A stretch of 60,409 nucleotides of DNA from Candidatus Pacearchaeota archaeon (GTDB taxonomy: Archaea; Nanobdellota; Nanobdellia; Pacearchaeales; GW2011-AR1): NCBI GenBank assembly GCA_018304025.1, contig JAGVXA010000002.1, forward strand, positions 1 to 60,409. Direction: 5' to 3'. Within the stretch, counting starts at the first letter, position 1; every line of letters begins with the position of its first letter. Shown here piece by piece: positions 20,138 to 46,587 of the stretch. Both the position numbers and the translations under genes were made by a program. The notes under the pieces were generated by a model, which worked only from the letters and a program-made list of their open reading frames with translations, was not told the DNA's origin and did no database searches.

Positions 20138-22162
20138 ATGAAAGAGAAGGTGTTAATTATTTTTGGAATTTTTATTTTGTTAGTTGGGGGAGTTTTTGCT
20201 GCAGAGTGCAACGATGGAATTGACAACGACGGCGACGGGCTTGTGGATTCAGCAGATAGAGGCTGCAGAAGTATCGGCGATATAAATGAGGGCGATGATG
20301 TGATGATTGGAACAAATTTGAATTGGGTTAATGATTGGTCCACTGAATGGGTCTTTGTTGATGTTATGAAAACTGCGCGAATGTGGTTTACCCAGAATTT
20401 TAATTCGACAAATCCTTTTTCTACGGGTTTAATTGATAAAATTCCTTTGAGGGAGGATGGTTATCCTATAAAAATACCTGCGGAAGTCCCAGGTGTTCCT
20501 ACTCCGCAGGTTGTTGGAACATTATTACTGCGCGATAACGGAGGGCATCATCCGGACGGAAATTATACTGTTCTTTATGAGGGTGATGGAGAGTTAAGAT
20601 TCGATTATAATGCGATAGTTGTCAAGCAAGAACCCCATAAAATTATTATTTATGTTTCTAATAAATCTAGCTCAGGTATTTTTCTCAGGATAATGAGATC
20701 AAATGAGTCAGATCCTGTCAGAAATATTAGGGTAATAATGCCGGGATTTGAAGACAACTATAGTGAGCAGATTTTTCATCCTCTATTTCTTGAGAGATAC
20801 AAGCCATATAAAATCTTTAGATTTATGCAGTGGATGAATATTAATGATGGCAATGATATTTCCTCTTGGGATGAAAGAAATAAGCCGACGGATTTTTCAC
20901 AAGCGAGAGTTCATATTAAAAACGGGAATATTTCTTCAATAGTTAATACATCTATTATTCAGTATCATAGTTGTTCGTGGAATCCCTTATATAGCGTATT
21001 GGTGACAACTTCGGAACCACACGGTTTATTTACAGGACAAGAGATTACCCTTAACGTAACAAATGATACATATTTTTATAGAGATTCAAGCGGTGTAGAA
21101 AGAAGCGCTTCAATTAATGGAAGAAGATTTGTGTATGTGGCTGATGAAACTCATTTTTATATAGGATTTGGTGACTGGCGCAATTCAAATCTCACTAGTT
21201 TTCCTACGGGCAGTTTTGGGACTTGGAAAAATGTTGTTGCTCCAGGGGTATCAGTTGAATACATGGTTGAATTATCCAATAGATTAGATGTAGATCCTTG
21301 GTTTAATGTCCCTTATGCTGCTAGAGACGAATATATAAGAAATTTTGCACAATATGTTAAGGATAATTTAGATAAGAATAAAACGATTTATGTTGAGTAT
21401 GCAAATGAGGTTTGGAATTCAGCAGCACCATATTACCCGCAGTTTTCATATTCTTGCGGTTATGCAGGCATTAAGAATATTGCTCAGCCAGCTTCAACTG
21501 CAGATCTTGCAAAATTCTCGTGGGATATTTGGAGAGATGTTTTTGGAAATGAAAGTTATAGGATAAAACGAGTAGTTGCTGGACAGAGGGTGAATTCATG
21601 GGTTGTATCAACTATGACTAATAGATTAAATCAAACTAGTTCTGATGGCGGTTTTGACGTAATTTCTGTCGCCCCGTATTTCTATCCCGATAATTTATCG
21701 GCGCTTAATGAAAATTCCAGTACTGAAGATGTAAAAAATGAGACTATCGCGTATTTAAAAAAAGTTACAATGCCTAAAATCGAAGAACATCTTGCGTTGC
21801 GAGATAAATGGGAAAAAGAGCTTGGACGCGAAATTGACTTTGTAGGCTATGAAGGAGGATCTGCTTTTGTGCCTGAATTAAATACCCCTTATTATAATGC
21901 ATATCTGGAGATACAAAATAGTTCGGCTATGTATGACTTGTACAAAATTGTTTTACGTTGGGCGCGTAATAAAAGTATTGAGGGCATAGTGTTTTATAAT
22001 TCAGGAGGTCTTTGGTCCTGGGGGCATTTACATTATCAAGACCAACCAATTGAAGAAGCACCAAAATTTAGAGCATTGATGGATGGTGCATCTGGAAAGA
22101 TTTATTTGGATGAATCTTTTGGGAACTGCACGATAAAGAAAGCGTATTGGCGAATAGCATAA
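20138..22162 (+). CDS. Secreted glycoside hydrolase-like (TIM-barrel) protein with C-terminal CTIKKAYWRIA tag
   Basis: Signal peptide, CNDGIDNDGDGLVD motif, FRFMQW, PWFNVP, YVEYANEVWN, YEGG (clan GH-A-like acid/base and nucleophile spacing; inference). Confidence 0.7.
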   Translation: MKEKVLIIFGIFILLVGGVFAAECNDGIDNDGDGLVDSADRGCRSIGDINEGDDVMIGTNLNWVNDWSTEWVFVDVMKTARMWFTQNFNSTNPFSTGLIDKIPLREDGYPIKIPAEVPGVPTPQVVGTLLLRDNGGHHPDGNYTVLYEGDGELRFDYNAIVVKQEPHKIIIYVSNKSSSGIFLRIMRSNESDPVRNIRVIMPGFEDNYSEQIFHPLFLERYKPYKIFRFMQWMNINDGNDISSWDERNKPTDFSQARVHIKNGNISSIVNTSIIQYHSCSWNPLYSVLVTTSEPHGLFTGQEITLNVTNDTYFYRDSSGVERSASINGRRFVYVADETHFYIGFGDWRNSNLTSFPTGSFGTWKNVVAPGVSVEYMVELSNRLDVDPWFNVPYAARDEYIRNFAQYVKDNLDKNKTIYVEYANEVWNSAAPYYPQFSYSCGYAGIKNIAQPASTADLAKFSWDIWRDVFGNESYRIKRVVAGQRVNSWVVSTMTNRLNQTSSDGGFDVISVAPYFYPDNLSALNENSSTEDVKNETIAYLKKVTMPKIEEHLALRDKWEKELGREIDFVGYEGGSAFVPELNTPYYNAYLEIQNSSAMYDLYKIVLRWARNKSIEGIVFYNSGGLWSWGHLHYQDQPIEEAPKFRALMDGASGKIYLDESFGNCTIKKAYWRIA

Positions 22163-22172
22163 AGATAATTTG

Positions 22173-22217
22173 TTTCTGGCCGCAATTGCTGTTTGACAAT
22201 TTGTGTGGCTGTCAAAC
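22173..22217. repeat. Left half of a REP-like element
   Basis: tctggccgc-aattg-ctgtttgaca..tgtcaaac, truncated at the MFS stop codon. Confidence 0.7.
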
Positions 22218-23606: not shown

Positions 23607-23649
23607 ATGATAAGAAATTAATTTTGATTAATAAATGTTTTCGTGGGGT

Positions 23650-24549
23650 TTAAGCAGGACGAAATGAATTTTTGCAACCTTTCCAAATTTTTCCCATTAT
23701 TTTTAGCGCTTGTTCTTCTGCTTTTCCTATTACCTTATACGTTCTTCCTTCTTCTTGGGCTGCCAGCGAGAGAGAAACTGAAATCGCTGTTTGTTTATCG
23801 TCGTGGCTGTAGCTTCTAAATCTCGCTGTGAGTTTTCCGCATTTTTCGATTATTTCTTCCTGCTGGTAAAGTTGTTCTCTGAATTCCGGGGAGATTAGCG
23901 CGTTGTCAATTGCAAATTTTTCATTGGGCGCGTATTTTTTGAGAAGGAGCTCGAATGTTCTTGATTGATAAACTGATTCGCCCTGCGCTGAGTAGATAGC
24001 TACCGGAGCTTTTTTTGTTTTTCTTGAAGTTTGAGAATAAAGAGTTATGACGTCTGCAAACGCGTTTGCCTGCAGCTCTAAAACTTTTGCTTCGAGTCTT
24101 GAAATATCCTGCTGCATTTCTTCCAGATTAGCTGCGTGAAATTTTTTTTCTTCTTTAAGCGAGCGGCATTCTTTTATAATATTTTTTGCTGCTTCAAATT
24201 CATTAAATTTAGAAAACTCTTCCAAGTCAAATAATCTAGTGGATTGCTTGGAAGCAACAAGAGCAGCCATAACTCTTCTACTCGCGAGCTCGTTTGCTTC
24301 TTGGATATTTTGCATCGCTCTTTCAAGAATTTCTTTTTTTTCTTTTTGTGTTTTTAGAATTTGCTGTTCGTATGCTTGCATTTGTCCCTGGCTAATTTGT
24401 TTTTCTTGGTTGCGGGAGGTTTTTTCTGATTCCAGAATTTGTTCCATCTGGCTTTTTTGCAGACGCAGCTCTTCGTTTTCGGTTTGGACTTTTTTATAAC
24501 TCGAACTGCGAGAGGCGAGATAATTTAAGATTCTTTTTAGCATTTCCAC
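23650..24549 (-). CDS. Coiled-coil hypothetical protein
   Basis: E/Q/K-rich heptads in the N-terminal half. Confidence 0.65.
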   Translation of the reverse strand: MEMLKRILNYLASRSSSYKKVQTENEELRLQKSQMEQILESEKTSRNQEKQISQGQMQAYEQQILKTQKEKKEILERAMQNIQEANELASRRVMAALVASKQSTRLFDLEEFSKFNEFEAAKNIIKECRSLKEEKKFHAANLEEMQQDISRLEAKVLELQANAFADVITLYSQTSRKTKKAPVAIYSAQGESVYQSRTFELLLKKYAPNEKFAIDNALISPEFREQLYQQEEIIEKCGKLTARFRSYSHDDKQTAISVSLSLAAQEEGRTYKVIGKAEEQALKIMGKIWKGCKNSFRPA

Positions 24550-24618: not shown

Positions 24619-24987
24619 ATGGACATATTTGATGCTGCGATTATTTGCAAGGAATGCAATAAAGAAATGAAACCGATAGTTGTTGAAAAATTAGGATTTC
24701 ATCTTCGGGCTGTTAAATGCGAGAAATGCGGCGAGAAAATAATTCATCCTGCTGATTTGGAAAGATTTAAACATTACGATAATATGAGGGGAAAGACTTA
24801 TAATGTCAAGCTTCGAGTTGTCGGGAACAGCCATGCGGTAAGTATCCCGAAAGAAATTTTTGATTTTATGAACGAGATGCACGGAAAAATGAATAAAGAC
24901 ATGAATGACATGGTCAGATTATGCTTTGAAGATTTTGGAAAGCTCAGCATGAATTTTATGGGGGAGAATGAATATGGCAAAGAATAA
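24619..24987 (+). CDS. Zn-ribbon + AbrB/MazE-like DNA-binding protein
   Basis: CKEC..CEKC; [16 protein letters not shown]. Confidence 0.75.
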
Positions 24988-27900
24988 CGAATTAAAATTA
25001 AAAGTTGTTGAATCGCTGCAGGATGATTTGTATAAAGGAATTGCCAGAATTGATCCTGGACTGATGAGAAATCTTGGCTTGCTCAGAGGAGATATTATTC
25101 TGATTAAAGGAGGCAAGGAAACTTTTGCAATTGTTGACAGGGCTTATCCAGCAGATGTCGGGGAAAATATAATTAGAATTGACGGCTTGATTAGAAAGAA
25201 TGCAAGAACAGGCGTCGGAGAACACATTGTCGTCGGAAAAGCAAATATCAGGCCTGCTACTAGAATTACAATCGCGCCGGTTCAGCAGGGGATAACTGTT
25301 CACGGCGATCCAGAAGGATTGAAAAACGGATTGCTTGGAAGACCGGTTGTCAAGGGAGATATTATTTCTTTAGGCGGAGTGCACAGAAGAAGAGACATGA
25401 TGGGCGAGGGAATGCCGGATATTTTTGGAGATTTGCAGGATTTATTTGGCGGCGGGGGTTTCGCTGGTTTTCAGCAAATAAGATTTATGATTGTTTCTAC
25501 TTCGCCTGCACAGGGCGGTTTTATCAACGAGAGCACTGAAATTGTTTTGAGCCCAAAATCTGTTGATATTTCTGAAGAGGCGCTGCCGGAAGTTGCTTAC
25601 GAAGATATTGGGGGATTGAAAGAAGAGATTAAAAAAATAAGAGAGATGGTTGAACTGCCGTTGAAGCATCCGGAAATTTTTGAGAAATTGGGGATTGACC
25701 CGCCGAAGGGAGTCTTGCTTCATGGAACTCCTGGAACAGGAAAAACTTTGCTGGCGAAAGCTGTCGCGAACGAAACAGAAGCGAATTTTATTTTATTGAA
25801 TGGCCCTGAAGTAATGTCTAAATTTTATGGAGAATCAGAGAAAAAAATCCGGGATATTTTTGAAGACGCTGAGAAAAACGCGCCGACAATTATTTTCTTC
25901 GACGAGATTGACGCGATTGCTCCAAAGAGGGAAGAAGTTCAGGGAGAAGTTGAGAGAAGAGTTGTTTCGCAGTTATTGACGATGATGGACGGCTTGAAAT
26001 CAAGAGGGAAAGTTATTGTTATCGGCGCTACAAATAGAATTAATTCTGTTGATCCTGCTCTTAGAAGACCTGGAAGATTTGACAGGGAGATTGAACTCAG
26101 TGTTCCTGGAAAGGAAGCGAGACTGGATATTTTGAAAATTCATACGAGAAATATGCCCTTGAGCAAGAATGTTGATTTGCTTGAATTAGCCGGGAAGACG
26201 CACGGTTTTGTCGGTGCTGATTTGTCTGCCTTGGCGAAGGAAGCTGCGATGAGTGTTCTTCGGAAAATGTTGCCTGCTTTGAAAATGGAAGAGGACGAGC
26301 CGATTCCTCCGGAAGTTTTGGACAAGGCGATTATTAAGATGAGTGACTTTGAAGATTCCTTGAAAGTTGTCCGTCCGTCGGCAATGCGGGAAGTTTTTAT
26401 CGAGACGCCGAATATCGGGTGGAAAGATATTGGGGGCTTGGAAAAAACAAAACAAGAATTGAAGGAAGCTGTTGAGTGGCCGATTAGCAATCCTGAAGCG
26501 TTTACGCGGCTGGGAATAAAAGCTCCGAAGGGAATTTTATTGTACGGGCCTCCGGGAACAGGAAAAACTTTGCTGGCGAAAGCTGTCGCGAAAGAATCAG
26601 AGGCGAATTTTATTCAGGTTAAGGGGCCGTCGCTGCTGAGCATGTGGGTCGGAAAATCATTGCCTTATGATGAAGAATTGATTGTGAAAGACAAAGGAAT
26701 TGTTAAGAGAATGAAAATTGGGGAGATTGTTGAGAAGAGAGAAAATGTCAAGGTTCTCGCATTCGATAAAGACAAAAGAATTAGATTTACAAAAATCGGG
26801 GATTATATAAAACATAAGCTTGATACTAAATTAATGGAAGTTACAACAAGAACAGGCAGAAAAATAAAAGTAACAGATTATCATTCTTTGTTTTCTTTTG
26901 TGAATGGCGAGTTTGTAGATGTTCCGACTAATCATCTTATTCCGAACGAAAGCTATATTGCAATTCCAAAGAATCTAAATCTTCCTAGGGAGGAAATGGA
27001 ACAAATTAATCTTTATGAATATTTTAAAGAAGACGAGGAAATATTTGCTGGAAATGTCAAGCCTTATCTGGAGAGAGCAAAGAAAATTTTGGGCTTAGAA
27101 AAGACTGCTGAAATTTTAAAGATTTCTAAAAAATATCTTGCTGATATAATTTTAAAAAATCTTCCGGTTAGTATTTCAAGATTTGACGAAATAATAAAGG
27201 AAGCAAAGTTAAGCATTGACTTTAACGAAATTAATCTTAAGTTCAAAGGCAGCAAGCATAATTATCCTGCTGTGTTAAAAATTAATGCTAATCTTTGGAG
27301 ATTAATTGGGCTGTGGATTGCAGAAGGAGATTTCAACAGTGATACGGTAAGAATTCATAATCAGAATCCTGAAATCAGAGAAGATATAAGAAAAATCTGC
27401 CGGGAATATGGATTTAAACTTTCTGAAATGGAAAGCTGTGCGACAATAAATAGTTATTTTCTGCAGAAAGTGTTTAAAGAAGTGTTTGGGCTTGAGGGAG
27501 GAGCTGACAAAAAAAGACTGCCCGCATTATTGTTTGGTTTAGACAAGGAAAGCAAAGCTAATCTGCTTAAAGGATATTTCAGCGGAGATGGTTCTATATA
27601 CGCTCATGAAAGAGGAAAGTTCGTGATAGAGGCTTCAACAATCAGCAAGGAACTGGCGAATGATCTTCTTTATTTATTTTTAGATTTTGGAATTGTAGCA
27701 ACATGCTATGCAAAGAAAAATGAATTTGGCGATGTTTACAGAATAAGCATCCTGGGAGTTAAAAACTTTGAGAGGTTTAAAGAAATTGGATTTATTGACG
27801 AGATTAGGAATGGACGGATAATCAATTATATAGAATCGAGAAAATGGGCGAGATCTGATTTAATTCCTTTGTCTGGAGAATTATATGAATTAGCATCAAA

Positions 27901-28741
27901 CTCGAATAAAGTTTATAGTACAAATAATTCAATTGGAAAAGAAGCGCTCAAGAGCATGCTTGTCTTGATTGATAAGGATAAATCAAAATATAAAGAATAC
28001 TGGGATTTGGTTGAAGGAGATATATATCTTGATTTAGTTAAAGAAATTAAAGTTATAGAAAGCGAGGAATATGTATATGATATTTCTGTTCCCGGAGAGC
28101 AGAATTTTATTGGAGGATTTGGAGGAGTAATTGCGCATAACAGCGAAGAAGGAGTCAGGAAAGTTTTTGAGAGAGCAAGGCAAGTTGCTCCTTGTGTTAT
28201 TTTCTTCGACGAGGTTGACGCTTTGGCTGGGAAGAGGGGAATTGAAACAGGCACGAAAGTTACAGAAAGAGTTTTGAATCAGCTATTGGCTGAGATGGAC
28301 GGCTTGGAGGATTTGAATGACGTTACTGTTATTGCCGCGACTAACCGTCCTGACATGATTGATCCTGCTTTACTTCGTCCGGGGAGATTTGACAGAATTA
28401 TTTTAGTTGACGTGCCTGACGAGGAATCCCGGAAAAATATTTTTGAAGTGCACACGCGAAATGTTCCTTTAACTAAAGATTTTAATTTGACTCATTTGGT
28501 TAAAATGACAGAAGGTTTTGTCGGCGCTGATATTGAGTCTGTTGTGAGAGAAGCTGCTTTGAATGCTTTACGGAAAGATATGAATGTTCAAGAAGTTGGG
28601 ATGGAAGATTTTGAAGAGGTTGTGAAAAGAATGACTCCTTCTGTTTCTAAAGATTCTGCGGATAGGTATAAGAAAATTGAAGAATATTATTTGAAGAAAG
28701 CGAAGGCGGGCTTGGAGACGGGGCCTGTTTATGCGGGATAG
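24968..28741 (+). CDS. cdc48: CDC48/VCP (VAT) AAA+ ATPase precursor containing an intein
   Basis: N-domain, Walker A GTPGTGKT and GPPGTGKT, Walker B FFDEID/FFDEVD, RPGRFDR twice; 762 aa after intein removal. Confidence 0.97.
26657..28141 (+). mobile_element. 495-aa intein with LAGLIDADG homing endonuclease in the CDC48 D2 domain
   Basis: WVGK|SLPYDE...VTDYHSLF...[10 protein letters not shown]...[10 protein letters not shown]...YVYDISV..NF..IAHN|SEE. Confidence 0.95.
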
Positions 28742-28785
28742 AAAATAACAATAAGATTTAATAATGTCTTTTGATATTGGATTGG

Positions 28786-31002
28786 ATGAAGAAAAAGGGG
28801 ATAGTTCTTTTTGCGATTTTTATTTTATTTAGTTTGAACTTTGTTTTTGCTGCGCCAATTATTATTGACCATAATGCTGTCGACGATTTTGAAAATATTC
28901 CTGATGAATATATTATTCAAGCAAAAAAAATGTGGCTGAATTTTCCAGGAGAGTCGCATTCGAGCGGCTATAGGATTGGAGTGCAGCTGCTTGCGCAGCA
29001 AAACCCAGAATATGCTGCTGTGATTTCGACGAGTTCGCCTACTCCGTATCGGGAAGATGCGCTGCGTGTCAGCGGATTAGTTAGAACGCAGTATAGTTCG
29101 TGGGGCAGCGGGGCTGGCGAGGCGATATGGTATGCTAATGGAAGCTTGAGAAGCCGTATAAAAAATCATATTGATTACTGCAACAACAACAACTTAATTA
29201 TTTCTGCGATAGGATTCGGCTGGTGCTGGGATATGACTTGGCAGAATGCTCCTGGCGGCGGGTTGGATACAATTTTTGATGTTCATTGGGCTGGTTCGTC
29301 TGACGGAGGACCTCAAGGCAATCTGCGCTGGGGACTTGATGCAGAGGATACAGCGCTTACGGGAAATACAGTAAACATGGACACGTATCTTGGCGCAACA
29401 GAAGAATATTCTAACCACGCAGAATCGCAAGGATATGGAACGAAAGTAATGTTTACAACTGGGCCTGTCGACGGTTATACTGGCGAGAATGGATACCAGA
29501 GGGAGATAAAGCACGAGTACATCAGAAATTTTGTCGAAAATTCCGAAGACAGAATTCTTTTTGATTATGCAGATATTCTTTCGTATAATGATTCTGGAAA
29601 TGAAAATAGATTGGTTTGGAATGGAAATAATTATCAGCAGATACATCCAGATAACATGAAAGATTTGAATGGCGGATATGTTGAAGATGGAGACCATATT
29701 GGACAGATTGGGGCTGTTCGGCTGGCGAAAGCAGAATGGTATTTGGCGGCGCGGTTGGCGGGGTGGGATGGAGGGATTGCTGCAGAGGAAAATTGCTCGG
29801 ACGGGATTCAAAACGGGGATGAAGTGGGGGTTGATTGCGGGGGGAGCTGTCTGGATGCATGCTTTTCTAATATATCTAATAATATCTTGCTCAGTGTTTG
29901 GTGGCAAAGTGCAGATACAGAAACAATTATAAAATGGAAAAATAGGGGAGTAGACTATTATGTCGGACCGCCTTCAATAAATGGCGTATGGAATATATCG
30001 AGATTCACATCTAATTTGAATGCTCAAGGAATGAGGACATTTACTCATGCATCTGATTTTAGTGCTGCATGGACTGCAGAAGGGAATGATGTTTACAAAA
30101 CAAAAAGGCCTGATTATCCCGGATATCCTACAGCAAAAGATGATCCTGACTATGAAGGTTTTTCAGGATGGTTAGTAGAACCAGATGAACCGGATCTTGA
30201 TACGCACATGATTGGTTATACAGACAGTGCTCATCCTGAAACAATTGATGAAAAAGCGACAGTAGATGAATATGTAAGAAGAGTTGAATATCTGGAAAAT
30301 TTGAGTCATGCTACATTAAAAGTAGGCGGATTTGCAGGGAATGACCTTAGTTACTGTTATAATAATGGTTCTAAGAACAGAAGGACATTCACAAACTTAA
30401 GTTGGAACGACTTTGAGAACATGGCTGCACAATTAGATGTTGTTTATTCTGATTATTACCCAGTTAACATTGGCCAGAATCTTGATAGTTTGATTTCAAG
30501 AATTGTTGCTACTTCTGCAGTTGCCAATGGAAAACCATTTGTAATTGCCATTGAAACTAGCGACCAGCATATTAATATTAATGGCAGAGCGCCAACTCCT
30601 GGAGAGGTTCGGGCTGAGACCTGGTTAGCTTTGATTTATGGAGCTAAAGCAATTTTGTATTTTCCTCAAGCGCCTGGAGGGCAGAGATTGCCGATTGAAA
30701 TAATCAGAGATGATAATACACCCGCTGATGTTTCTGCTGAGTTAGCCATACAAAATGAGTTAATCAAAGAACATGAATTAGATTTATCCCTGTCGGGAAT
30801 AGTTGAAAATTATGGGAAATTCCATTGCAGGAAAATTCCTCTTTTAGATGGAACTGGAGATGTAAAAAAAATTTGCCTTAATCTAGATAATTCAACTAAT
30901 ATTTTAGATGGAAAATCTTATGACGCTTATGAAGTGAAAATTTTTATGGAAAGTCCGACGATGCCTTGTGTGATAACGAAAGCGTATTGGAGAGTGTTGT
31001 AA
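28786..31002 (+). CDS. Secreted two-domain enzyme (SGNH-like + glycoside hydrolase-like) with C-terminal CVITKAYWRVL tag
   Basis: Signal peptide; GESHS..FDYADI..DGDH; CSDGIQNGDEVGVDCGGSC linker; DEPD, DYYP, IET, RAETWLALIYGAKAILYF. Confidence 0.7.
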   Translation: MKKKGIVLFAIFILFSLNFVFAAPIIIDHNAVDDFENIPDEYIIQAKKMWLNFPGESHSSGYRIGVQLLAQQNPEYAAVISTSSPTPYREDALRVSGLVRTQYSSWGSGAGEAIWYANGSLRSRIKNHIDYCNNNNLIISAIGFGWCWDMTWQNAPGGGLDTIFDVHWAGSSDGGPQGNLRWGLDAEDTALTGNTVNMDTYLGATEEYSNHAESQGYGTKVMFTTGPVDGYTGENGYQREIKHEYIRNFVENSEDRILFDYADILSYNDSGNENRLVWNGNNYQQIHPDNMKDLNGGYVEDGDHIGQIGAVRLAKAEWYLAARLAGWDGGIAAEENCSDGIQNGDEVGVDCGGSCLDACFSNISNNILLSVWWQSADTETIIKWKNRGVDYYVGPPSINGVWNISRFTSNLNAQGMRTFTHASDFSAAWTAEGNDVYKTKRPDYPGYPTAKDDPDYEGFSGWLVEPDEPDLDTHMIGYTDSAHPETIDEKATVDEYVRRVEYLENLSHATLKVGGFAGNDLSYCYNNGSKNRRTFTNLSWNDFENMAAQLDVVYSDYYPVNIGQNLDSLISRIVATSAVANGKPFVIAIETSDQHININGRAPTPGEVRAETWLALIYGAKAILYFPQAPGGQRLPIEIIRDDNTPADVSAELAIQNELIKEHELDLSLSGIVENYGKFHCRKIPLLDGTGDVKKICLNLDNSTNILDGKSYDAYEVKIFMESPTMPCVITKAYWRVL

Positions 31003-33952: not shown

Positions 33953-36900
33953 TTAAATATTTCTTTTTTGGAGTGCTCTCTTGAAAATTGTATAAATGTT
34001 TCTTGAGTCTTTGTTCAAGAGATTTGCGACTGCTGAATTTGTCATGCCGGAGTTTCTTAAATTAGCGACGAGAGATTCTGAAATACTGAGATTTCTATTT
34101 GAGAAGATTTTTATTGAAATGAATATTGCTTTTGCGGATATTTGGAATTTGGATTGTTTTTTGATGGAAGCGTTTCTGTAATTTATCCAAATTGTTCTTT
34201 GGTTTCTGTTCAGCAGTTGGGCGATTTGGCTATATGAAAGGTTTTGGTTTTCTTTCAAATATTTTGTCAGGGCTTCTGCAGGACTTATTCCTTGCGCGAA
34301 AATTTCTGCAGGTATTTTGATTTCTTCTCTTGCTGCCTGGTATTCTTCTTTTAATCTTTCTTCGACTAATTCAAGAATTTCTTCTTTTTGCTTCTTCAAT
34401 TTTTCTTCGACTAATTCAAGAATTTCTTTCTTTGATTTTTTCTTTTTACGCCGCGGAATTACGACAAGCGCGAGCGCGAAGTAAATGTCGATTTCCCACG
34501 CAGTGCCTCCAACTGACGGCGAGGTGGAGAAACTTTCAGCTGGAAGTCCGGATGGAACTTGGTTCAAGCAAAAATAAATATCCTTTTCTGTTATCGTTGG
34601 GGATGGGGGGCCTGTTGGAAGCAATTGGAATGATTGTACTGATTGCACACTACTGTGTGCTAATACTGTGTCGTCTTCTACATCGCATGCTGTTGTTTCT
34701 GATTTGGCTGAAAAACTATCTGCCGGAATATTTTCTGATTGAGCTAAGTCGTAGCGAAGATTAAATGCTTCTATCGATAAACTGTTCAGTTCTATGTTTC
34801 CGGTATTTCTTACTTGAAGAGGAGATTCAGAAGGAACTGGCGTTGTTTGCCCGGAAACTACGTTTTGCCAGTTTAATGATTGCGGAGGAAGAATTTCAAA
34901 ACTATAGAAAGGAAGCACTTCGAATTGTTCAAAGTATTCATCGCTTACGGAATTTTCTGAGAGCATAAGATGTACATTCCAGTCTATTGCAGGCTCGTCC
35001 CAGTATTTCATAAATACTGTGCAGGTGTATACTAAGTAATCTGTCATATCAGTTTCAAAATTGCATGAACCTGCTCTTACGGTTTGTTCTGTTCTATCCA
35101 GTGTGAAGCCGGCGAAAAGAACTGCTGAGGGGGAAGCAACGACGTCAACTTGGAAATTTACTTCAACGTCTTCTTCGGCAATATTTTTTTCTGCAAAATC
35201 CACTGGGTTGAGATTTCTGACGCGAAGTATGAACGGGTCGGTTTCTTTTCCTATTTTATATACAGAGTATCCTGGAGATGCAGGTATAGTGAAATTTATA
35301 TTTTCTGTAGTTTCGTTAAAAGTTTCTGGCTGGATGTTTGTGCAGTCTGTGCAGTTCCTTCCGTTTCTTAAGATTTGAAAAGGAGATGTTAGATTTACAG
35401 CAGGATAATTGTAGAGAGAAATTCTTGCTGATTTGCCTAAGCCGGAGTTGGCTTCTGCGTCGATTGAAATTCTGTTGTGCCTAATATTAACTTCTCTGCT
35501 TAGTTCGTTTCCTTCTCCAGAGATTCCTTCTAAGAATCGGATTTTTCCTTCGTTTGTATCTTCAAATATAACTTTGTTTCCTGCGAAACTGTATTTTTTC
35601 AGAATCATGTCGATTAATGTTGTGTTTTCAAGGGCTGATGACGAGGACAAAACAATATCTTTAGAGAAAGCGCCCGTTACACTAATGTTTTTGAATACAT
35701 TCTTGCTTGAGTCATCTTCAGTTGAACTTCCACTCATATAAATTGCATTTAGTGAAGAACTTTCGATTCTTCCCTGCGAGAAAAGATTGTTTGCACTATG
35801 GTCAACATTTATTCCATCGTAATTATTATTTGCTGTGATATTTGTGAACGTGTTATTTGGACTAAAATAAATATACATTCCGAAAAGGGAGTTGTCATTT
35901 GCCGTGATGTCTGCGAGGAAATTATTAGAACTGCCGACAAAATAAATTCCATCGTAATTATTATTTGCTGTGATATTTGAAAGAGTATTGTTCGAGCTAG
36001 AATGAAAGTACAGACCGAAAAAATAATTATCGTTCGCTGTGACGTCTATAAGCGTGTTGTTGCTAGAACTGCTTGAAAGGTAAATTCCGTCGAGATTATT
36101 AGAAACATTGACAGATTGTATGGCGGAATTGTTCACGCTTTCAAAATAAATTCCTGCGCTATTGTAGATGCTTCCAAAATCAGATATTGTTGTGTTTAGG
36201 ATAATTATATTTACGCGTCCTGTTGCATATATTCCGTAATCTGTTCCGGAACTATCGCCTTTAATTGCGTATTTGTTTCCGTTTAATGTAATATTGTCTG
36301 CTTCAATAGTCAAACATGTTCCTGTTGTTTGAATGTCATTGGCTAAGTAATAGCATCTGTTTGGCAGAGTTATTTGTGATGCGCCTTGGTCGCATTGAGT
36401 TATTGGGATGCAAGGAGGTAAAATTGTTACTGTTCTTTGTTCTGTTGAATTTAGATTTCCTATTGCGTCAACTGCGTATGCTTTGAATGTGTGCGCTCTC
36501 TCTGGTAATTCTGTGAATTCATTATAATATTGGTATTTTGTCGCGTTGTAGAGAGATTGGATTTCTGGTCCTGAGAGAGAACGATTGAATACCATTAATT
36601 CATCAAGGATGCCGTTGAATTCATGCTGATGATCGCTTCCTCCGCATCTGCCTATTAAAAAGCCATAACCTTCAGTGATTAGATTATTTGAAGTTCCATC
36701 TTCTATACCGTCTAGATATAATGTTTGTCTGGAATTTTCATAAGTAAAAGTAGCGTGGTACCATACTCCGGGCTGCAGAGTTGTGGCGCCAGCAAGGTAA
36801 TTACCGCTCATCTGAGCAACTAATCTTCGGTTCAAAACATAAAACTGTCTGCCGCCGCTATTAAAAATTTGGTCTTCGGTTGTGTCGTCAACTGCTCTTT

Positions 36901-39900
36901 TTATCCACGCAGAATATGTAAATTGCGGAGAACTAGTCAGGCTTTGTTTAGGATTCCCAATTCGAATAACATTATTCATTCCTAAAAATTCAAAACCACC
37001 TCCGAATTTTCCTTCTTTTACAGGTCCGATTTTAGAAGAATCTACGATAACAACTGTTCCGTTATTTTCATTTCCGCTCCAGTCATATACAAATGTGTCA
37101 TTTTCTTTGACAGAAGAATCGTTGTCGAGTCTCCACCAGCCGACTAATGACTTATCAAAATCATTCAAGACGTAATGCTCTCCGTTGTTGTCTGCTGAAG
37201 AAACATTTATGATAATGGAGTTTGTGTTTCGCGCTGAAGCGTTTGCAGGAGTATCTCCGACGAAAGAGATATTTGGAGCAGTTACATCGGGTGTTGTTAC
37301 TGTTCTTTGTTCTGTTGAATTTAGATTTCCTGCCAAATCAACAGCATAAGACTTGAATGTGTGCGCTCCCTCTGGCAAGTTTGTGAAGGTATTGTAATAC
37401 TGGTGTGCCGAAGCGCTATATAATGTTGCAATCTCATCTGCTGATAATATTCTGTTGAAAATTAGGACTTCGTCAATTGAGCCATTGAAGTAATATCTAC
37501 TTCCGTCGTCTTCGCTTCCTATTGAATTGCTTGTTGATGTTGTTGCAGGTGTTCTTTGCTGACCGAACTCTACAATGCTACTTCCGATTATTTGACCGTC
37601 TAAGTATATGCTTATGTTTCCTGTAGCATAATTTATTGTTCCGACGATGTGTTGCCATTTGTTTTCAACTGCGCCGTTTGTTTGAAAGCTAAGCAGGCCG
37701 CCACCATCTATTGCTCGTGCGGCAACTTTTATATCATCTGTATTTCCTACTTCTATTGATGCTCTTGTGGATTTTGTCGGTAAAACAGAATTAATCGAAA
37801 TTGCTACAATGACATTACCCTCTGTTGAATGGATTTTTTTAGGATATACCCATGCAGATAATGTTGCACTACTGACATTAGATAGTATGTCGAGTCCTGT
37901 TCCAAGCCCGACATAGTCTCCATTTCCGTAGAATTCAAATGCTTTGCCGAACTTTCCGTTAGGAGTTTGCGCAGAGTTGCCCATTGCTGTTCCATTGTTG
38001 CTCTTGTTGCTTAGGTCTATTATTTTGGTTCCATCAATGTCATCCATTCTCCACCAGCCGACTAATGATTTATCAAAATCATTCAAGACATAATGCTCTC
38101 CGTTGTCGTCGGCTGAAGAAACATTTACGACGAAAGAATTTGTTGATAATAAGGAGTTGTTTGCAGGAGTATCTCCGACGAAAGAGATATTTGGAGCTAT
38201 AGGGTCTTCTCCGATGCTATAATTGCTCCAGCTCGTTACATTGAATATAACTGTATCTGCGTTTAATGGCGTGAAAGCGTAACAGTCTGTGCAGGGCATT
38301 CCATCTCTTAATATTGTCGGTCCTTTGAAATTTGCTCCGGGAGAATTGTAGAGAGTTATGTTTGCTGTTCTGTTTAAGCCAGGCGTAATTAAAGATTCAA
38401 CTGTGACTGAATTATTTTCGATTCTTATATCGTTGCTTAAATTTGAATTACTGCCTGTTACGTCCTGATAAAAATAAACTTCTCCATATTCAGATTTCTT
38501 GACACTTATAGTGCCTGTTAAATAATATCCTGCTATTGAACTGTCTATTACATTCGTTCCATTTACATAACTCCAAATACCGCCAGGGCTAATTCCAGTG
38601 ACATTTTTTAGAGTGATGTTGTTTGAATATATGTAAATACGATTATTTGTTATAGTATTTTCTATTAAATTATTTGGAGAACCAGAAAGCCAAAATGCTC
38701 CGTACGCATCATTCATAATAATATTGCCGGAAAAATTATTATTTTGCGAGTTGTCTGTCCAGATTGCTTTGTGTACGTTGCTGTACATGCGATTGTTTTT
38801 TACAACAGTATAATCTACACCGTTAAAATACATGCCAGTGTACTGCCTGCTAATTGAATTATTAAATATAAAAGAATAGTCAGCTCCTTGGAGATAAATT
38901 CCTCTGCCGCTGGATGCGATGCCCATAGTAATGTTGCAATTCTTTACTGTAGTATTCGGCTGGTTTGAATAAACTCCTGCAACCGGGTTCGTGCTTTTGA
39001 TTGAATATCCTTTGCAATCCAATGTAATATTTTGCGCGGAAATAGTAATACAAGGAGCGGTTAAACCGTTGTTTATAATATTCGCATTCATCTCGTATGT
39101 GGTGTTTGATTCAGAGAGCGTGTCGCATTCGAATACAGATGATTTGTTTATTGTGACAAATCTCTGCTCTGTTGAATTTAGATTTCCTGCTGTGTCAACG
39201 GCGTATGCTTTGAATGTATGGTTTCTTCCTTGTAAACTTGTAAATTCATTGTAATACTTATTTGTAGACGCTTCATACAACGCCGAGATTTCACTGACAG
39301 ATAATGTTCTATTAAATAACGAAACATCGTCAATTATGCCGTTGAAGTATGCTGTGGACCAAGAGGAATCGTAAATGCCTGCTTCACCAATATAAAAGTT
39401 TCCTGTTTCTGTTGCTCCGCAAGAAGCAACCATATCAAATAGAGGTTCTGTTTTATCAAATACTCCATTTATATAAAGCGACATAGCTTCAGAACTAGGT
39501 ACGTAAACAAAAGTAATAAGTGTCCATTCGTTTAGAGGAATATTTTGGGTGCTTGTAATTCTGCTTGTGCCATCATACTGAGGTTCGCCGAGTCCGCTAA
39601 GAAAATTCAGTTTATTGTTGCCGTCTAAGTAAATTGAATGCATTCCGCAATCGTAGCTGTCTAATTCTGAATAATAATTAATTATTCCGCCCTCACTTTC
39701 AGGATAAATCCACATTGCCCATGTAAAAGCAGAAATACTAAACGGATAAGGCGCATTTTCTGTTGTTATATAATCTCCACTGCCATCAAAACTAAATCCT
39801 TTTCCGAACTTACCTTCGTTAGTCTGCGCAGCATCACCGCCTTTAGTTCCGTTATTGCTCCAGATACTTAGGTCAACAATGTCCCCAAAACTATTGAGGT

Positions 39901-41794
39901 CGTCCATTCTCCACCACCCCGCTAATGATTTATCAAAATCATTCAAGACGTAATGCTCTCCGTTGTCATCTGCAGAGGAAACATTAACTATAATTGAACC
40001 TGTTCTTTGTGTTGAATTATTAACTGGCGTATCTCCTACGAAAGAAATATTTGGAGAAGTTGTATCAGAAGTATTAACAGGGTCCACAATATAATCGATT
40101 TGAATTTCTCCGTCGAGGATTTTCAAATCAAATGTGTCCTGCTGGTTTTGAAGAGAGGTTAGCAGGACTTTGTTGTATTCGTCGCTGTTTATCGAGGCAA
40201 ATTCAGCGATTAGTTCATTGCTGTTTATTTCATAGATTTCGATTCTTGGGCTGCCGGAAATTATTCTTGGGAAAATTGTTATATCTTTTGTGCTGTCTAA
40301 TTTTTGCTCGAATGTGACTCTGACGTAGTGAGCTGAAGGGATGGCGCTTGTCCAGTTGTTGTCCTGTGATTTTACCTGCTCGTAAATGTCCTCGATAAAA
40401 GTCCGGTTAGAATCAAGATGCTCTGCTTTTGTTATGAAGATTATTTCGTAGATTTGCTCGCTTAGATATGGGACTGTCCACTCTATGTAATCTATGAATT
40501 TGTCTTCGTCTAAATCGTAGGCGGTAAATTGGACTTGCTCTCTTCCTTCTGTTGTTCTGTAAAGCCGCATTTTATTTTGCTGAGTTACTGGAATGATGTT
40601 TGGCAGTTCTGTGTACGCTAAAACATCCTGATAATGAATTTCATCAGGGCCTGTAATTGTAATTTTTTTTCCGTTCGGAATTTCCTGCTCAACTGCCTGC
40701 GGAGCTTCGGTTGTGTATTCAACTGCAATTTCTTTTTCTCCGGACTCTACTAGATTTTTCAAATCTATTACTTTCTCGGTTTCTGTTTGGATTGTATTAT
40801 TTTGGATTTCGTCTTCGTAAATAGCTGAGCCGGTTACCGAAGATTTTGTGAAGACACTAAAGATTTTTGCTAAGATGAGTAGAATTTTTTTCAAGAAGGA
40901 TTGTTTTTCTGCTTGGGGAGAAAACTGGATTTGCGGTTCGAGAAATTCTTTTCTGTCTGCTTGAGTTATTGATTTTTCGTATTGCTCTTTTTGGGCGAAG
41001 GCTTGATTGACTTCTTCGCCTGTTTTTATTGAGATGTCCTGAGATTGCAGAGGAATTTCTACTGTTAGATTTTGGGAAGGGTCTTTCACGTCGATAGTTT
41101 TTATCCATTTTACCGGGCGGTTGATTACTGCCTTGTATTGGATTGCTGTTGTGTTTGGCTGGATTTTTTGTTCTGGGATTGATTCGGGGAGGGAAATATT
41201 TTCTTCTGGCTGTTTTTCGGTTGTTTGATTTGGAATTGCTTCTGGGATTGTGATGTTTATTTCAGTAATGTTTTTTTCTGGAATTGTGATATTTTCTTCT
41301 AGAGAGGGTTCTGGGGCAGTGGCATTTTCTTCTACTGTTGGTTCTGGAACTGTGATGTTTTCTTCTAGACTTGGAATTTGTTCTTCAATTGTTTGATTTG
41401 GAATTGTCTCATTTTCTTCTGGGCTGAAAAATAATTTTGTTTGAGGAGAACTAAGAAATATTGCGGATAGGATAATGACGGCGAGAATAGGAAGGAATAT
41501 CAGCGCGATTTTTTTGACTGCTCGTTTTTTTGACTGCTCGTTCAATTTTTCAAGGAGAGTTTGACTTTGCTGAATATATTTGTCGTAATAATTAACCCAT
41601 TGTTCAGGAGTTTTTGTTTGAAATACTTTTTTTATTTCTTCGTTGTATTGACTGTAGGAAAGTTCGCCGATTTGATATTTGACGACGAGCTTTTGAACTA
41701 TGCTTTCTGTTTTTTTCTTGTTTTGTTCTGCTGTCTGAATTCTTCTTAGAAGCTCTTCTTTTTTCGCCTTTGATTCGTTTATTTTTTTTACCAT
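33953..41794 (-). CDS. 2613-aa surface adhesin: SHOCT-like N-terminus, TM, three LamG-in-Ig modules, beta-helices, fibre-like domain, C-terminal tandem HTH
   Basis: GWWRxD...F(N)G.IDE..FNR.LS three times; NosD-like NNT repeats; LSYSQIAQLLNRNQRTIW and MTNSAVANLLNKDSRNIY. Confidence 0.85.
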   Translation of the reverse strand: MVKKINESKAKKEELLRRIQTAEQNKKKTESIVQKLVVKYQIGELSYSQYNEEIKKVFQTKTPEQWVNYYDKYIQQSQTLLEKLNEQSKKRAVKKIALIFLPILAVIILSAIFLSSPQTKLFFSPEENETIPNQTIEEQIPSLEENITVPEPTVEENATAPEPSLEENITIPEKNITEINITIPEAIPNQTTEKQPEENISLPESIPEQKIQPNTTAIQYKAVINRPVKWIKTIDVKDPSQNLTVEIPLQSQDISIKTGEEVNQAFAQKEQYEKSITQADRKEFLEPQIQFSPQAEKQSFLKKILLILAKIFSVFTKSSVTGSAIYEDEIQNNTIQTETEKVIDLKNLVESGEKEIAVEYTTEAPQAVEQEIPNGKKITITGPDEIHYQDVLAYTELPNIIPVTQQNKMRLYRTTEGREQVQFTAYDLDEDKFIDYIEWTVPYLSEQIYEIIFITKAEHLDSNRTFIEDIYEQVKSQDNNWTSAIPSAHYVRVTFEQKLDSTKDITIFPRIISGSPRIEIYEINSNELIAEFASINSDEYNKVLLTSLQNQQDTFDLKILDGEIQIDYIVDPVNTSDTTSPNISFVGDTPVNNSTQRTGSIIVNVSSADDNGEHYVLNDFDKSLAGWWRMDDLNSFGDIVDLSIWSNNGTKGGDAAQTNEGKFGKGFSFDGSGDYITTENAPYPFSISAFTWAMWIYPESEGGIINYYSELDSYDCGMHSIYLDGNNKLNFLSGLGEPQYDGTSRITSTQNIPLNEWTLITFVYVPSSEAMSLYINGVFDKTEPLFDMVASCGATETGNFYIGEAGIYDSSWSTAYFNGIIDDVSLFNRTLSVSEISALYEASTNKYYNEFTSLQGRNHTFKAYAVDTAGNLNSTEQRFVTINKSSVFECDTLSESNTTYEMNANIINNGLTAPCITISAQNITLDCKGYSIKSTNPVAGVYSNQPNTTVKNCNITMGIASSGRGIYLQGADYSFIFNNSISRQYTGMYFNGVDYTVVKNNRMYSNVHKAIWTDNSQNNNFSGNIIMNDAYGAFWLSGSPNNLIENTITNNRIYIYSNNITLKNVTGISPGGIWSYVNGTNVIDSSIAGYYLTGTISVKKSEYGEVYFYQDVTGSNSNLSNDIRIENNSVTVESLITPGLNRTANITLYNSPGANFKGPTILRDGMPCTDCYAFTPLNADTVIFNVTSWSNYSIGEDPIAPNISFVGDTPANNSLLSTNSFVVNVSSADDNGEHYVLNDFDKSLVGWWRMDDIDGTKIIDLSNKSNNGTAMGNSAQTPNGKFGKAFEFYGNGDYVGLGTGLDILSNVSSATLSAWVYPKKIHSTEGNVIVAISINSVLPTKSTRASIEVGNTDDIKVAARAIDGGGLLSFQTNGAVENKWQHIVGTINYATGNISIYLDGQIIGSSIVEFGQQRTPATTSTSNSIGSEDDGSRYYFNGSIDEVLIFNRILSADEIATLYSASAHQYYNTFTNLPEGAHTFKSYAVDLAGNLNSTEQRTVTTPDVTAPNISFVGDTPANASARNTNSIIINVSSADNNGEHYVLNDFDKSLVGWWRLDNDSSVKENDTFVYDWSGNENNGTVVIVDSSKIGPVKEGKFGGGFEFLGMNNVIRIGNPKQSLTSSPQFTYSAWIKRAVDDTTEDQIFNSGGRQFYVLNRRLVAQMSGNYLAGATTLQPGVWYHATFTYENSRQTLYLDGIEDGTSNNLITEGYGFLIGRCGGSDHQHEFNGILDELMVFNRSLSGPEIQSLYNATKYQYYNEFTELPERAHTFKAYAVDAIGNLNSTEQRTVTILPPCIPITQCDQGASQITLPNRCYYLANDIQTTGTCLTIEADNITLNGNKYAIKGDSSGTDYGIYATGRVNIIILNTTISDFGSIYNSAGIYFESVNNSAIQSVNVSNNLDGIYLSSSSSNNTLIDVTANDNYFFGLYFHSSSNNTLSNITANNNYDGIYFVGSSNNFLADITANDNSLFGMYIYFSPNNTFTNITANNNYDGINVDHSANNLFSQGRIESSSLNAIYMSGSSTEDDSSKNVFKNISVTGAFSKDIVLSSSSALENTTLIDMILKKYSFAGNKVIFEDTNEGKIRFLEGISGEGNELSREVNIRHNRISIDAEANSGLGKSARISLYNYPAVNLTSPFQILRNGRNCTDCTNIQPETFNETTENINFTIPASPGYSVYKIGKETDPFILRVRNLNPVDFAEKNIAEEDVEVNFQVDVVASPSAVLFAGFTLDRTEQTVRAGSCNFETDMTDYLVYTCTVFMKYWDEPAIDWNVHLMLSENSVSDEYFEQFEVLPFYSFEILPPQSLNWQNVVSGQTTPVPSESPLQVRNTGNIELNSLSIEAFNLRYDLAQSENIPADSFSAKSETTACDVEDDTVLAHSSVQSVQSFQLLPTGPPSPTITEKDIYFCLNQVPSGLPAESFSTSPSVGGTAWEIDIYFALALVVIPRRKKKKSKKEILELVEEKLKKQKEEILELVEERLKEEYQAAREEIKIPAEIFAQGISPAEALTKYLKENQNLSYSQIAQLLNRNQRTIWINYRNASIKKQSKFQISAKAIFISIKIFSNRNLSISESLVANLRNSGMTNSAVANLLNKDSRNIYTIFKRALQKRNI

Positions 41795-42497: not shown

Positions 42498-42509
42498 AAT
42501 TTGATTTTT

Positions 42510-42870: not shown

Positions 42871-42876
42871 TTGAAC

Positions 42877-44469: not shown

Positions 44470-44556
44470 AAAAAGATTTATGCTTGGAATTATATAAATT
44501 TATGTTCGCTGTCTTTTGTATAAAGATTTAAATATATTAAAATATTAGACTCTTGC

Positions 44557-46587
44557 ATGAGAAAAGAGGATAAGAAAAGTTCTAAGGGATTATATTTAAT
44601 TTTGATTTTAGTGGGAATACTAATTATTGGGCTGTTTTTCGTCGGTATTTCTATAAATGGGAATGTTATAAATGGTTTTGGAAGCAAGATAGTTGGTTTT
44701 ACATTGTTTGATTTAATTCGAGATTTTATATTCGGGGGCAAGGTGATGCTGGGGCCTACGACAGGAGATACTGTTGAGCTTGTTGTTGAGGGAATTAACT
44801 GCACTGGAAAAATTGTTTCATTTGAATATTATGAAGTTGATTCTGACGGGAATGATTTGATTACTGGATTGTATGGTTTGCCGACGAGCGGGACTGTTCT
44901 TGGAAGCAACGTGACTGCGACTTGGCTTGTCCAGTGGTTTGATGATGCAGATGGCGACGATGGAGATAATAATCCTGAAATTATTTTTGTTGCTAGTTGC
45001 GACGGAAGCAGTGCTACTTCTGATATTTTAGAACTTTCTCCTGCCCCAATTCAAATTACAGCGGGAAATAATATCAACCTCGTTGTCGAGGGAATTAACT
45101 GCACTGGAAAAACTATTTCATTTGAATATTATGAATTAGATGACAATGGAAATGATACTATCACCGGATTGTATGGTTTGCCGACGAGCGGGACTGTTCT
45201 TGGAAGCAATGTGACTGCGACTTGGCTTGTTCAGTGGTTTGCTGACGACGAGATTGACAACGGAAACGATGATCCTGAAATTGTTTTTGTAGCTAGCTGC
45301 GACGGAAGCAGTGCTGTTTCTGATATTCTGGAAATTTTACCTGCTTCAGTTTTAACATGCGCTTTGAATTCCGAGTGCAATGATTTCAATCTTTGCACAA
45401 CTGATAGTTGCAATCCTTCTAATCCTTTGGCTAATGGATTTGGCTGTGTTTTTGCAAATAATGCTTTGTCTTGTGATGACGGCGTATTTTGCAATGGTGC
45501 TGATATTTGCAATAGCGGAGTGTGCGGGCATGCCGGAGATCCGTGCGTTGCTGGAGAAACGTGCTTCGAACCTAATATTTGCGCGCCTTTAACATGCAAG
45601 GATATCGACGGAGATGGAATTCCTGATTACAATGCTACTTATTGTCCTCCTTCTTCTGGCGGCGGCGGTGGAGGCGGCGGAAGGGATTATTGTGCATGGA
45701 CTAACAAGAGTTATTTAATTGGAAATAATACGGCGATAAATAGTTACCTTCCAGATACAAACGCGGGCGGATTGAATATTTCGCAAATTGACAGCTCTAA
45801 TTTGGTCGAGCATTCGAATTTCATGATTGAGAAAGCAAATCTTGCGCGAATCAGGTTTAGAGAAAATTTGATGCTGGTGAGAGTGAATGAAACAGGATGC
45901 TTTGAGAAGATTAATTTCTCTGAGAAGCTGATAAAAATAGAAGACAAGAAAGTGTTTGTGAATTCAAGTTATTTTGTTGAAATGAAAAAGCCAGCTGTGA
46001 TTGAGTTTTACGGCGTTAATTTTGTTACTCCGAAGGTTTTGAAAGACGGTTCTGACTGCGGAGTTGATTGCTCCTTGAATTCTTATATTTCTGGAGTAAG
46101 TTATTCTGTGAATGTAAGCGGGTTCTCGACGTATGAAGTTGTTGAAGGTTACGTTGCTCCTGGCACGACTCCTTCTGGAGGCAGTGGCGGGGGTGGAGGC
46201 GGAGGCGGCGGAGGTGGAACAACTCCAAAGTTGTGCACTCAATCAATAAAATGCGACGCGTGGAGCAGCGAGTGCGTTGATGGAAGCCAGAAAAGATATT
46301 GCTACGATGCAAATGCCTGCAACAAGACGAAGAGTTATTACGAATATAAAGATTGCAGAGCAAGTGTTGAAGGAACTGAAACTGGCGAGGGAGGAATTTT
46401 AGGAGGAATAACAAATCCAACAACTAGAGCAATTTGGAAGATAGTTATTTTTGTTTTTGTTGGGGTTATGATTGCGGGATTAGTTGTCTTCATTGTGCTA
46501 TATCTTGCTAGGAGAGCGAAATCTGGCAACAAGGAAGTTAAAATGGGAAAGGTTTTGGAAGATTCGAAGAAGTTTTTAGGAAAGTAA
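44557..46587 (+). CDS. Doubly anchored surface scaffold protein with two 100-aa Ig-like repeats, Cys-rich and poly-Gly segments
   Basis: 300-nt tandem repeat LVVEGINCTGK..SFEYYE.D..TATWLVQWF..PEI.FVASCDG; N- and C-terminal TMs. Confidence 0.8.
   Translation: MRKEDKKSSKGLYLILILVGILIIGLFFVGISINGNVINGFGSKIVGFTLFDLIRDFIFGGKVMLGPTTGDTVELVVEGINCTGKIVSFEYYEVDSDGNDLITGLYGLPTSGTVLGSNVTATWLVQWFDDADGDDGDNNPEIIFVASCDGSSATSDILELSPAPIQITAGNNINLVVEGINCTGKTISFEYYELDDNGNDTITGLYGLPTSGTVLGSNVTATWLVQWFADDEIDNGNDDPEIVFVASCDGSSAVSDILEILPASVLTCALNSECNDFNLCTTDSCNPSNPLANGFGCVFANNALSCDDGVFCNGADICNSGVCGHAGDPCVAGETCFEPNICAPLTCKDIDGDGIPDYNATYCPPSSGGGGGGGGRDYCAWTNKSYLIGNNTAINSYLPDTNAGGLNISQIDSSNLVEHSNFMIEKANLARIRFRENLMLVRVNETGCFEKINFSEKLIKIEDKKVFVNSSYFVEMKKPAVIEFYGVNFVTPKVLKDGSDCGVDCSLNSYISGVSYSVNVSGFSTYEVVEGYVAPGTTPSGGSGGGGGGGGGGGTTPKLCTQSIKCDAWSSECVDGSQKRYCYDANACNKTKSYYEYKDCRASVEGTETGEGGILGGITNPTTRAIWKIVIFVFVGVMIAGLVVFIVLYLARRAKSGNKEVKMGKVLEDSKKFLGK

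Follow-up and report, generated by a model that had tools for sequence, protein, structure and literature searches.

Why should non-homologous exported proteins of one small archaeon end in the same peptide? Two secreted proteins encoded on a 60,409-nucleotide stretch of DNA from Candidatus Pacearchaeota archaeon (GenBank assembly GCA_018304025.1, contig JAGVXA010000002.1; the whole stretch is hereafter called the window) end in closely similar 11-residue tags, and a membrane protein of the same stretch carries two immunoglobulin (Ig)-like repeats that begin abruptly. An earlier note, made from the letters of this DNA, had proposed that the tag is a donor beta-strand that docks enzymes onto incomplete Ig domains in a cellulosome-like display system, or else a novel sorting signal. 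We consider it nearly certain that the tag is under selection as a portable C-terminal module and stems from the first strand (strand A) of the Ig-like family to which the repeats belong. That the tag docks in trans onto the repeats is given a probability of roughly 0.45.

A common C-terminal tag on exported proteins

Translation confirmed both window tags, CTIKKAYWRIA-stop at 22127..22162 (+) and CVITKAYWRVL-stop at 30967..31002 (+), and the likeness of the two at the DNA level is present as the earlier note had quoted it. The whole genome was analyzed (992,424 bases on 29 contigs, of which the window is contig C6; about 1,021 crude genes; 88% complete). In it, the DNA-level pattern (N/Q)-C-x-(I/L)-x-(K/R)-A-Y-W-x-x-x-stop occurs in 25 copies, each of them C-terminal, as against no match for the reversed pattern used as a control. 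The regular expression C.[ILVM]..A[YFNWH]W, run over the six-frame open reading frames (ORFs) of at least 60 residues, gave 23 matches, all within two to three residues of the stop codon (three residues follow the Trp in 22 matches and two in one). The idea of docking had been made to depend on an enrichment of the tag at C-termini, and these 23 of 23 matches bear that enrichment out. Among the 25 copies, the three-residue spacing from Trp to the C-terminus is kept in 24.

The 25 copies comprise 21 complete genes, one gene cut by the end of contig C10, and three orphan 3' fragments at C1:6438-6473 (-), C24:15881-15916 (+) and C19:24900-25253 (+). Of a tagged gene, the orphan fragments retain just the final 15-50 codons; two lie in ORFs 20 and 26 codons long, and the third is joined in frame to a preceding N-terminal half of a HEPN domain. 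Every one of the 21 complete tagged proteins has a Sec-type signal peptide and is otherwise without a hydrophobic segment. A Pro/Thr-rich linker of variable sequence precedes the tag, which is always in frame, always terminated by a stop codon, and spread over at least five unrelated protein architectures.

Proportions of nonsynonymous (pN) and synonymous (pS) differences were calculated by the Nei-Gojobori method over the 24 tag copies of equal length. The whole tag gave a pN of 0.19 and a pS of 0.51, its core from Cys to Trp gave 0.11 and 0.46, and the seven adjacent linker codons gave 0.60 and 0.63. Cys, Ala, Tyr and Trp are invariant in 25 of 25 tags despite synonymous codon variants. Since these four residues are fixed while their codons vary, conservation acts on the peptide rather than on the DNA, and the tag copies are not of recent origin.

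These values bear directly on the view that the tag is a functionless leftover of a once-truncated cis domain (one with strand and domain in the same chain), with the 3' module spread among paralogues by recombination, or that it acts at the level of DNA. The three orphan fragments show that the 3' end of tagged genes does recombine, and codon usage is uniform at some sites: the tag Ile is encoded by ATA in 22 of 22 cases, versus 30% genome-wide, and the tag Ala by GCG in 18 of 24, versus 24% genome-wide, with variation at the other synonymous sites. A leftover would not, however, be expected to combine a pS of 0.46-0.51 with four invariant residues and a pN of 0.11-0.19 beside a neutrally evolving linker, nor to stay in frame with a terminal stop on so many architectures, and we regard this view as very improbable. 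A DNA-level element or readthrough was also considered for the window tags and rejected, as convergent genes lie 9-56 nucleotides after both, the tags are in frame and pS is high.

The origin of the tag was sought in the Ig-like repeats. A profile built from the two repeats of the window membrane protein (at 44557-46587) and a third copy from contig C25 was searched against 1.84 billion representative proteins and matched 147 proteins at E<=1e-3. This Ig-like domain is not represented by any Pfam model. The core of the family in its cis form reads C-x-L-T-x-A-x-W ... V-x-L-x-V-x-G-x-N-C ... W-x-A-x-W ... P-E-x-x-F. A strand of the form C.[ILVM]..A.W stands directly before the domain in 140 of 206 instances from other organisms, and many more have near variants of it; the statement in the earlier note, that a C-x-(I/L)-x-x-A-x-W strand precedes this domain in related proteins, was therefore correct. 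A looser expression matched the strand in 88 of 106 well-covered instances, one of which (P0010) is a chance match. The strand was also found in cis in relatives: clearly in eight of ten matches from same-genus genomes (one further match is cut at the ORF start and one is partial and lacks the strand) and in 13 of 13 instances from a class-wide sample, and a phylum-wide sample of 400 genomes added nothing further.

A position-specific scoring matrix (PSSM) was then made only from 24 of these foreign cis strands and slid over every ORF of at least 100 residues in the genome. The C-terminal tags took ranks 1 to 23 of 383,866 positions, the two window tags scoring 15.0 (22127..22162) and 18.7 (30967..31002).

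A similar motif was observed elsewhere in the genome. In two secreted proteins, at C21:53094-55820 (+) and C21:49635-51683 (+), GNCVITKARW or GDCVITKARW comes immediately behind the signal peptide, and in the former this strand-A-like motif precedes a strand-B-like stretch that ends in Cys.

Ig-like domains with and without their first strand

The membrane protein of the window, a candidate scaffold of 676 residues encoded at 44557..46587 (+), has an N-terminal membrane segment, two Ig-like repeats, Cys-rich modules, a C-terminal membrane segment and a basic tail. Its description in the earlier note as doubly anchored, with two Ig-like repeats of about 100 residues that start abruptly, holds: the hydrophobic segments are residues 8-26 and 622-640, and the repeats (44746..45039 and 45046..45339, both +) are about 98 residues each, 72% identical to one another, and start at G-x-T-V-E-L-V-V-E-G-I-N-C. 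The repeats of this genome show the family's core motifs from strand B through strand G (G-x-N-C, two Trp, P-E-x-x-F-x-A). The third copy, on contig C25, is the only repeat of another membrane protein.

A hidden Markov model of the full domain recovered these three copies in the genome with independent E-values (iE) of 8e-18, 1e-17 and 2e-13, and strand A is missing before all three. The only cis-type copy in the genome is divergent (C8:36640-39066 (+), iE 0.012); its strand reads CDILELRW, and the protein that contains it has a signal peptide and is anchored in the membrane at its C-terminus. The ten best profile matches all lack the strand; they are the two proteins of this genome, P0006 (a strandless one-repeat homologue of the scaffold, 70-74% identical), several DUF362 membrane proteins and two large proteins.

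Structure models were used to identify the missing element. The cis-domain model, made from a 24-sequence alignment, reached a predicted local distance difference test score (pLDDT) of 94 and placed strand A at residues 7-13; the strandless repeat was modeled from 12 sequences. Both models were compared with about 48,000 solved chains, where the cis model matched Ig-like domains along their full extent. On 9jdh_A the cis model aligned at 245-385 (Z 12.5) and the strandless model at 277-383 (Z 7.9); on 6tqd_A (intimin) the alignments covered 555-655 (Z 10.6) and 567-653 (Z 5.7), and on 1f02_I 658-754 (Z 9.9) and 669-751 (Z 5.9). The strandless-model alignments thus begin 11-32 residues later on the same chains, and the alignment of the scaffold's first repeat to solved Ig-like domains leaves out the initial 11-15 residues of those domains. 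From this later start, the models identify the missing part as the canonical first strand (A) of an intimin/macroglobulin-type Ig-like sandwich. A Foldseek search against the PDB returned only generic V-set matches, with template modeling (TM) scores up to 0.53.

Strand-A Cys and G-x-N-C Cys are present, with no other conserved Cys, in 87 of the 106 well-covered domain instances, and in five of the 106 the two are lost jointly, which argues that they form a disulfide in cis domains. Nine strandless instances, P0010 among these, keep the G-x-N-C Cys and have gained a new one; the strandless member P0014 lacks the new Cys.

Both halves of the proposed pair have a narrow distribution. The tag DNA pattern gave no match in 20 genomes of the same genus and one single, chance-like match in 20 further relatives. 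A stricter pattern, which demands Ile, Lys and Tyr so that diverged tags would escape it, gave 22 single, scattered matches in unrelated bacteria from a collection of genomes of 185,579 species, where about 26 are expected by chance. In a collection of metagenome contigs, 65 loci were found: 33 match this genome at 100% identity, and the other 32 are chance matches in short ORFs. Strandless acceptors were found in none of 20 same-genus, 400 class and 400 phylum genomes. As far as visible in these sequence collections, the tag system is confined to one population.

Possible docking in trans and its alternatives

The tag is derived from strand A, and the domain copies identified with confidence in this genome are missing exactly that strand, which makes docking of the tags in trans onto the strandless repeats the most economical reading of this complementarity. 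The tagged proteins would be exported through Sec by their signal peptides, with no anchor of their own. The C-terminal tag would insert as the missing first strand beside strand B of a strandless Ig-like domain; the candidate acceptors are both tandem repeats in the 44557-46587 protein and the lone repeat of the C25 protein. The outcome, in the style of donor-strand complementation, would be up to three enzymes per scaffold pair at the cell surface. The tag Cys would sit where the Cys of the cis domain pairs with the G-x-N-C Cys, which is retained in the acceptor, and we speculate that a disulfide could lock the complex, perhaps through exchange with a third Cys specific to the acceptor subfamily.

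The docking and display proposed in the earlier note is supported in part: the tag is the strand A of the repeats' own family, the repeats lack that strand, and the two co-occur in this genome and in no relative searched. Genomic linkage adds one case. The C25 acceptor gene begins 10 nucleotides past the stop codon of a tagged gene that is read in the same direction, and here the most divergent tag adjoins the most divergent acceptor. In the window, the scaffold lies seven crude genes from the nearer tagged gene, and other tagged genes are clustered on contigs C19 and C24.

Several observations weigh against docking. The strandless repeat folds on its own in AlphaFold2 (pLDDT 83, as given for the first repeat of the scaffold), and an Atlas model of it resembles complete SpaA/prealbumin-like sandwiches (TM 0.75). 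A third Cys (F-x-A-x-C, after strand F) occurs in nine of ten strandless members and in no cis member. Such a subfamily-specific residue suggests that the acceptor's G-x-N-C Cys has probably been re-paired internally, replacing the lost strand-A disulfide, and that the strandless domain may be autonomous and the acceptor self-sufficient; of all the observations, this one tells most heavily against a simple incomplete-domain interpretation. Strandless domains also form the C-termini of DUF362 membrane proteins in other organisms. There are 25 tags versus only three acceptor sites, and the near-identical motif CVITKARW of the two C21 proteins stands right after the signal peptide rather than at the C-terminus. 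One adjacency like that on C25 would arise by chance among the roughly 1,021 crude genes with a probability of about 9%, and the co-occurrence of tag and strandless domain comes from a single population (n=1). A possible contact was considered in the C25 pair, where the divergent tag has Glu in place of the Lys/Arg of the others and the acceptor has Lys in place of the Glu of the window repeats. This charge swap was not supported by covariation among 202 cis instances, in which same-charge pairs at A10-B29 were, if anything, more frequent than expected (12 versus 7.2), and it was set aside as evidence of contact.

If the acceptor Cys is re-paired internally, the tag Cys has no obvious partner, barring thiol-disulfide exchange. 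One alternative is that tags pair with each other, as a two-stranded ribbon closed by a Cys-Cys disulfide, so that secreted proteins would be joined into covalent dimers or networks. The make-up of the tag would suit such pairing, with one invariant and often otherwise unpaired Cys, an aromatic core and a hydrophobic end, and the G-x-N-C Cys of the acceptor would be busy elsewhere. We nevertheless find this alternative improbable, as no known precedent was found, the homology to strand A and the strandless domains would go unexplained, and a zipper would have no need of a C-terminal distance fixed at three residues in 24 of 25 copies.

What the relatives of the tagged proteins carry at their C-termini bears on a further alternative. 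Outside the window pair, most tagged proteins are built on a right-handed beta-helix, in some cases together with PKD domains, and in the beta-helix proteins a 'choice-of-anchor Q' domain stands directly before the linker and tag; 'choice-of-anchor' we take to be the NCBIfam name for domains that are then followed by varying anchor signals. At the position of the tag, homologues of the tagged families in other organisms have the end of the protein, type IX secretion system (T9SS) sorting domains, or dockerin-like tails. Among the matches listed for three tagged families (119, 120 and 120) in a collection of 5.8 billion proteins, the tag was found only in this population's own proteins; an unrelated match in those lists, P0420, has the cis domain.

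The tag could accordingly be an anchoring or sorting signal that is read by something else, such as a processing enzyme, an S-layer, or the surface of the host of this presumably episymbiotic archaeon, with the likeness to strand A reflecting only its origin. The tag fills a slot in which homologues hold other anchoring modules, as LPXTG, PGF-CTERM, PEP-CTERM and the T9SS C-terminal domain do in homologues (e.g. after choice-of-anchor domains). Selection at the peptide level, an acceptor that may be structurally self-sufficient and the excess of tags over acceptor sites would all fit a signal, and the motif near the N-terminus of the two mature C21 proteins hints that it may work regardless of position. 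Those known signals, however, consist of a motif, a membrane helix and a basic tail, or of an 80-residue domain, and are served by a dedicated transpeptidase or translocon, whereas the tagged proteins lack such features: only two to three residues follow the Trp, and there is no hydrophobic segment or basic tail of the kind seen in sortase, archaeosortase and exosortase signals. No match to PF09721 (exosortase/archaeosortase) was found in this 88% complete genome, in which sortase families were not searched for, and no candidate reader protein was found. A signal would also leave unexplained why the only confident domain copies of the genome are strandless ones. On balance we judge an anchoring or sorting signal with another reader unlikely, though not far-fetched.

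Two of the homologues in other organisms, P0393 and P0395 (about 55% and 38% identical, respectively, to a tagged family), share an amphipathic tail, ...SWI-x-(D/E)-FLR-x-I-x-N-(V/I)-(L/F), possibly a C-terminal tag that a different lineage has in this slot.

Returning to docking in trans, the closest known mechanism, by analogy, is the exchange of strands within type V pili of Bacteroidia (FimA/Mfa1), in which, according to PMC13655056, a C-terminal donor strand replaces the N-terminal strand of an Ig-like/transthyretin-like acceptor that belongs to another protein. In those pili the donor is itself an acceptor pilin and a filament grows, whereas the putative donors here are 20 or more unrelated proteins and the acceptors are separate membrane proteins. 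The vacancy in type V pili arises through gingipain cleavage, and the pili are anchored through lipidation in an outer membrane, whereas the acceptors here are encoded strandless in an archaeon and imply no protease step. Chaperone-usher pili and the archaeal threads, cannulae and bundling/Tat pili likewise have an Ig-like or jelly-roll fold completed by a foreign strand, according to 10.1101/2024.12.30.630787, PMC9715654 and PMC12337348. Their donor strand is N-terminal, the missing strand is C-terminal or strand G, and the products are homopolymers; the candidate donor here is C-terminal, the missing strand is the N-terminal strand A, and the assembly would be a heterotypic one of enzymes on a scaffold. 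Subunits that are donor and acceptor at once, as in filaments, were not found: the tagged proteins contain no copy of the domain, and the two acceptor proteins do not end in a tag.

In cohesin-dockerin cellulosomes, many unrelated secreted enzymes share one C-terminal module, and a cell-anchored scaffold carries tandem receptors. The dockerin (PF00404) is a folded, calcium-binding domain of about 70 residues that sits on the face of a complete cohesin, whereas the tag has 11 residues and would join the fold of its receptor, so the likeness is one of logic only. No PF00404 match was found in 23 tagged proteins, 21 of them searched at E<=1e-3 and the two window proteins at E<=0.1, and no cohesin match was found in the tagged proteins searched. 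SpyTag/SpyCatcher is an engineered split of the Ig-like domain CnaB2, in which a strand peptide docks on the remainder and is locked by an isopeptide bond. That system is man-made; the split proposed here would be natural, and any lock would be a candidate disulfide.

It is tentatively hypothesized, at rather less than an even chance, that a DPANN lineage has cut an Ig-like domain into a natural plug and socket, with the strand placed on more than 20 horizontally acquired enzymes and the remainder in tandem on membrane scaffolds, so that the enzymes are clipped to the surface and possibly locked by a disulfide. If true, this would be heterotypic donor-strand complementation with a cellulosome-like layout and a natural counterpart of SpyTag/SpyCatcher. 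It would represent a new principle of surface display, a docking code for many unrelated enzymes rather than for filaments of one subunit, and would account for about 2% of the proteins (22 of about 1,021 genes) being held at the surface without anchors in a 1-Mb, probably host-dependent archaeon. The 11-residue natural tag and its 98-residue receptor would make a compact tool for protein engineering, and the family itself would be a domain caught in the act of splitting, with correlated rewiring of its disulfides. No such system was described in the literature searched on DPANN C-terminal sorting, strand complementation in Pacearchaeota and archaeal surface donor strands, a search that excluded subscription-only papers; those listed on the last topic seem, by title and abstract, to treat filaments or to be reviews.

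Tagged proteins and their neighbors in the window

The first tagged protein of the window (20138..22162 (+), 674 residues) consists of a signal peptide, an acidic double-disulfide repeat, an unnamed catalytic-type domain and the 11-residue tag. Its sole hydrophobic segment is residues 1-19, followed by a match to NF033662 at residues 22-45. Its family is an unnamed one, labeled cellulose-binding protein by some sources, and its homologues elsewhere have neither the tag nor the Ig-like domain. The second (28786..31002 (+), 738 residues from the ATG) has a signal peptide as its single N-terminal hydrophobic segment, a weak GH42-like region (PF02449, E 1.7e-6) and the tag. By BLASTP the two have in common only the signal peptide and the tag, which gives the best local alignment (E 0.006), and no sequence relatives of either were found in the PDB. 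The earlier note had called them two non-homologous secreted enzymes without transmembrane anchors. Non-homology, secretion and the lack of an anchor all stand; the word enzymes applies only in part, given the weak GH42 match, the cellulose-binding label and the beta-helix and PKD architecture of most other tagged proteins.

The tagged protein at C24:23265-25085 belongs to a beta-helix family with five paralogues in this genome (seven matched stretches). Across 20 other genomes of the genus no match reached E<=1e-20, and the closest relatives of the family are mostly bacterial. Both points suggest that the family was acquired and expanded in this lineage.

The acidic double-disulfide repeat of the first tagged protein (20201-20272; NF033662, just under the cut-off) was also observed in the C25 acceptor (L001; P0005 residues 217-244). 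An untagged protein of 2,613 residues, encoded at 33953-41794 (-), contains three Laminin_G_3 domains and beta-helix/NosD regions. Between the two tagged genes, a CDC48/VCP-type AAA ATPase (24968-28741 (+)) is split by a large insert, which begins behind the second Walker region and ends in ...VIAHN-S, giving it an intein-like look with a homing-endonuclease-like middle.

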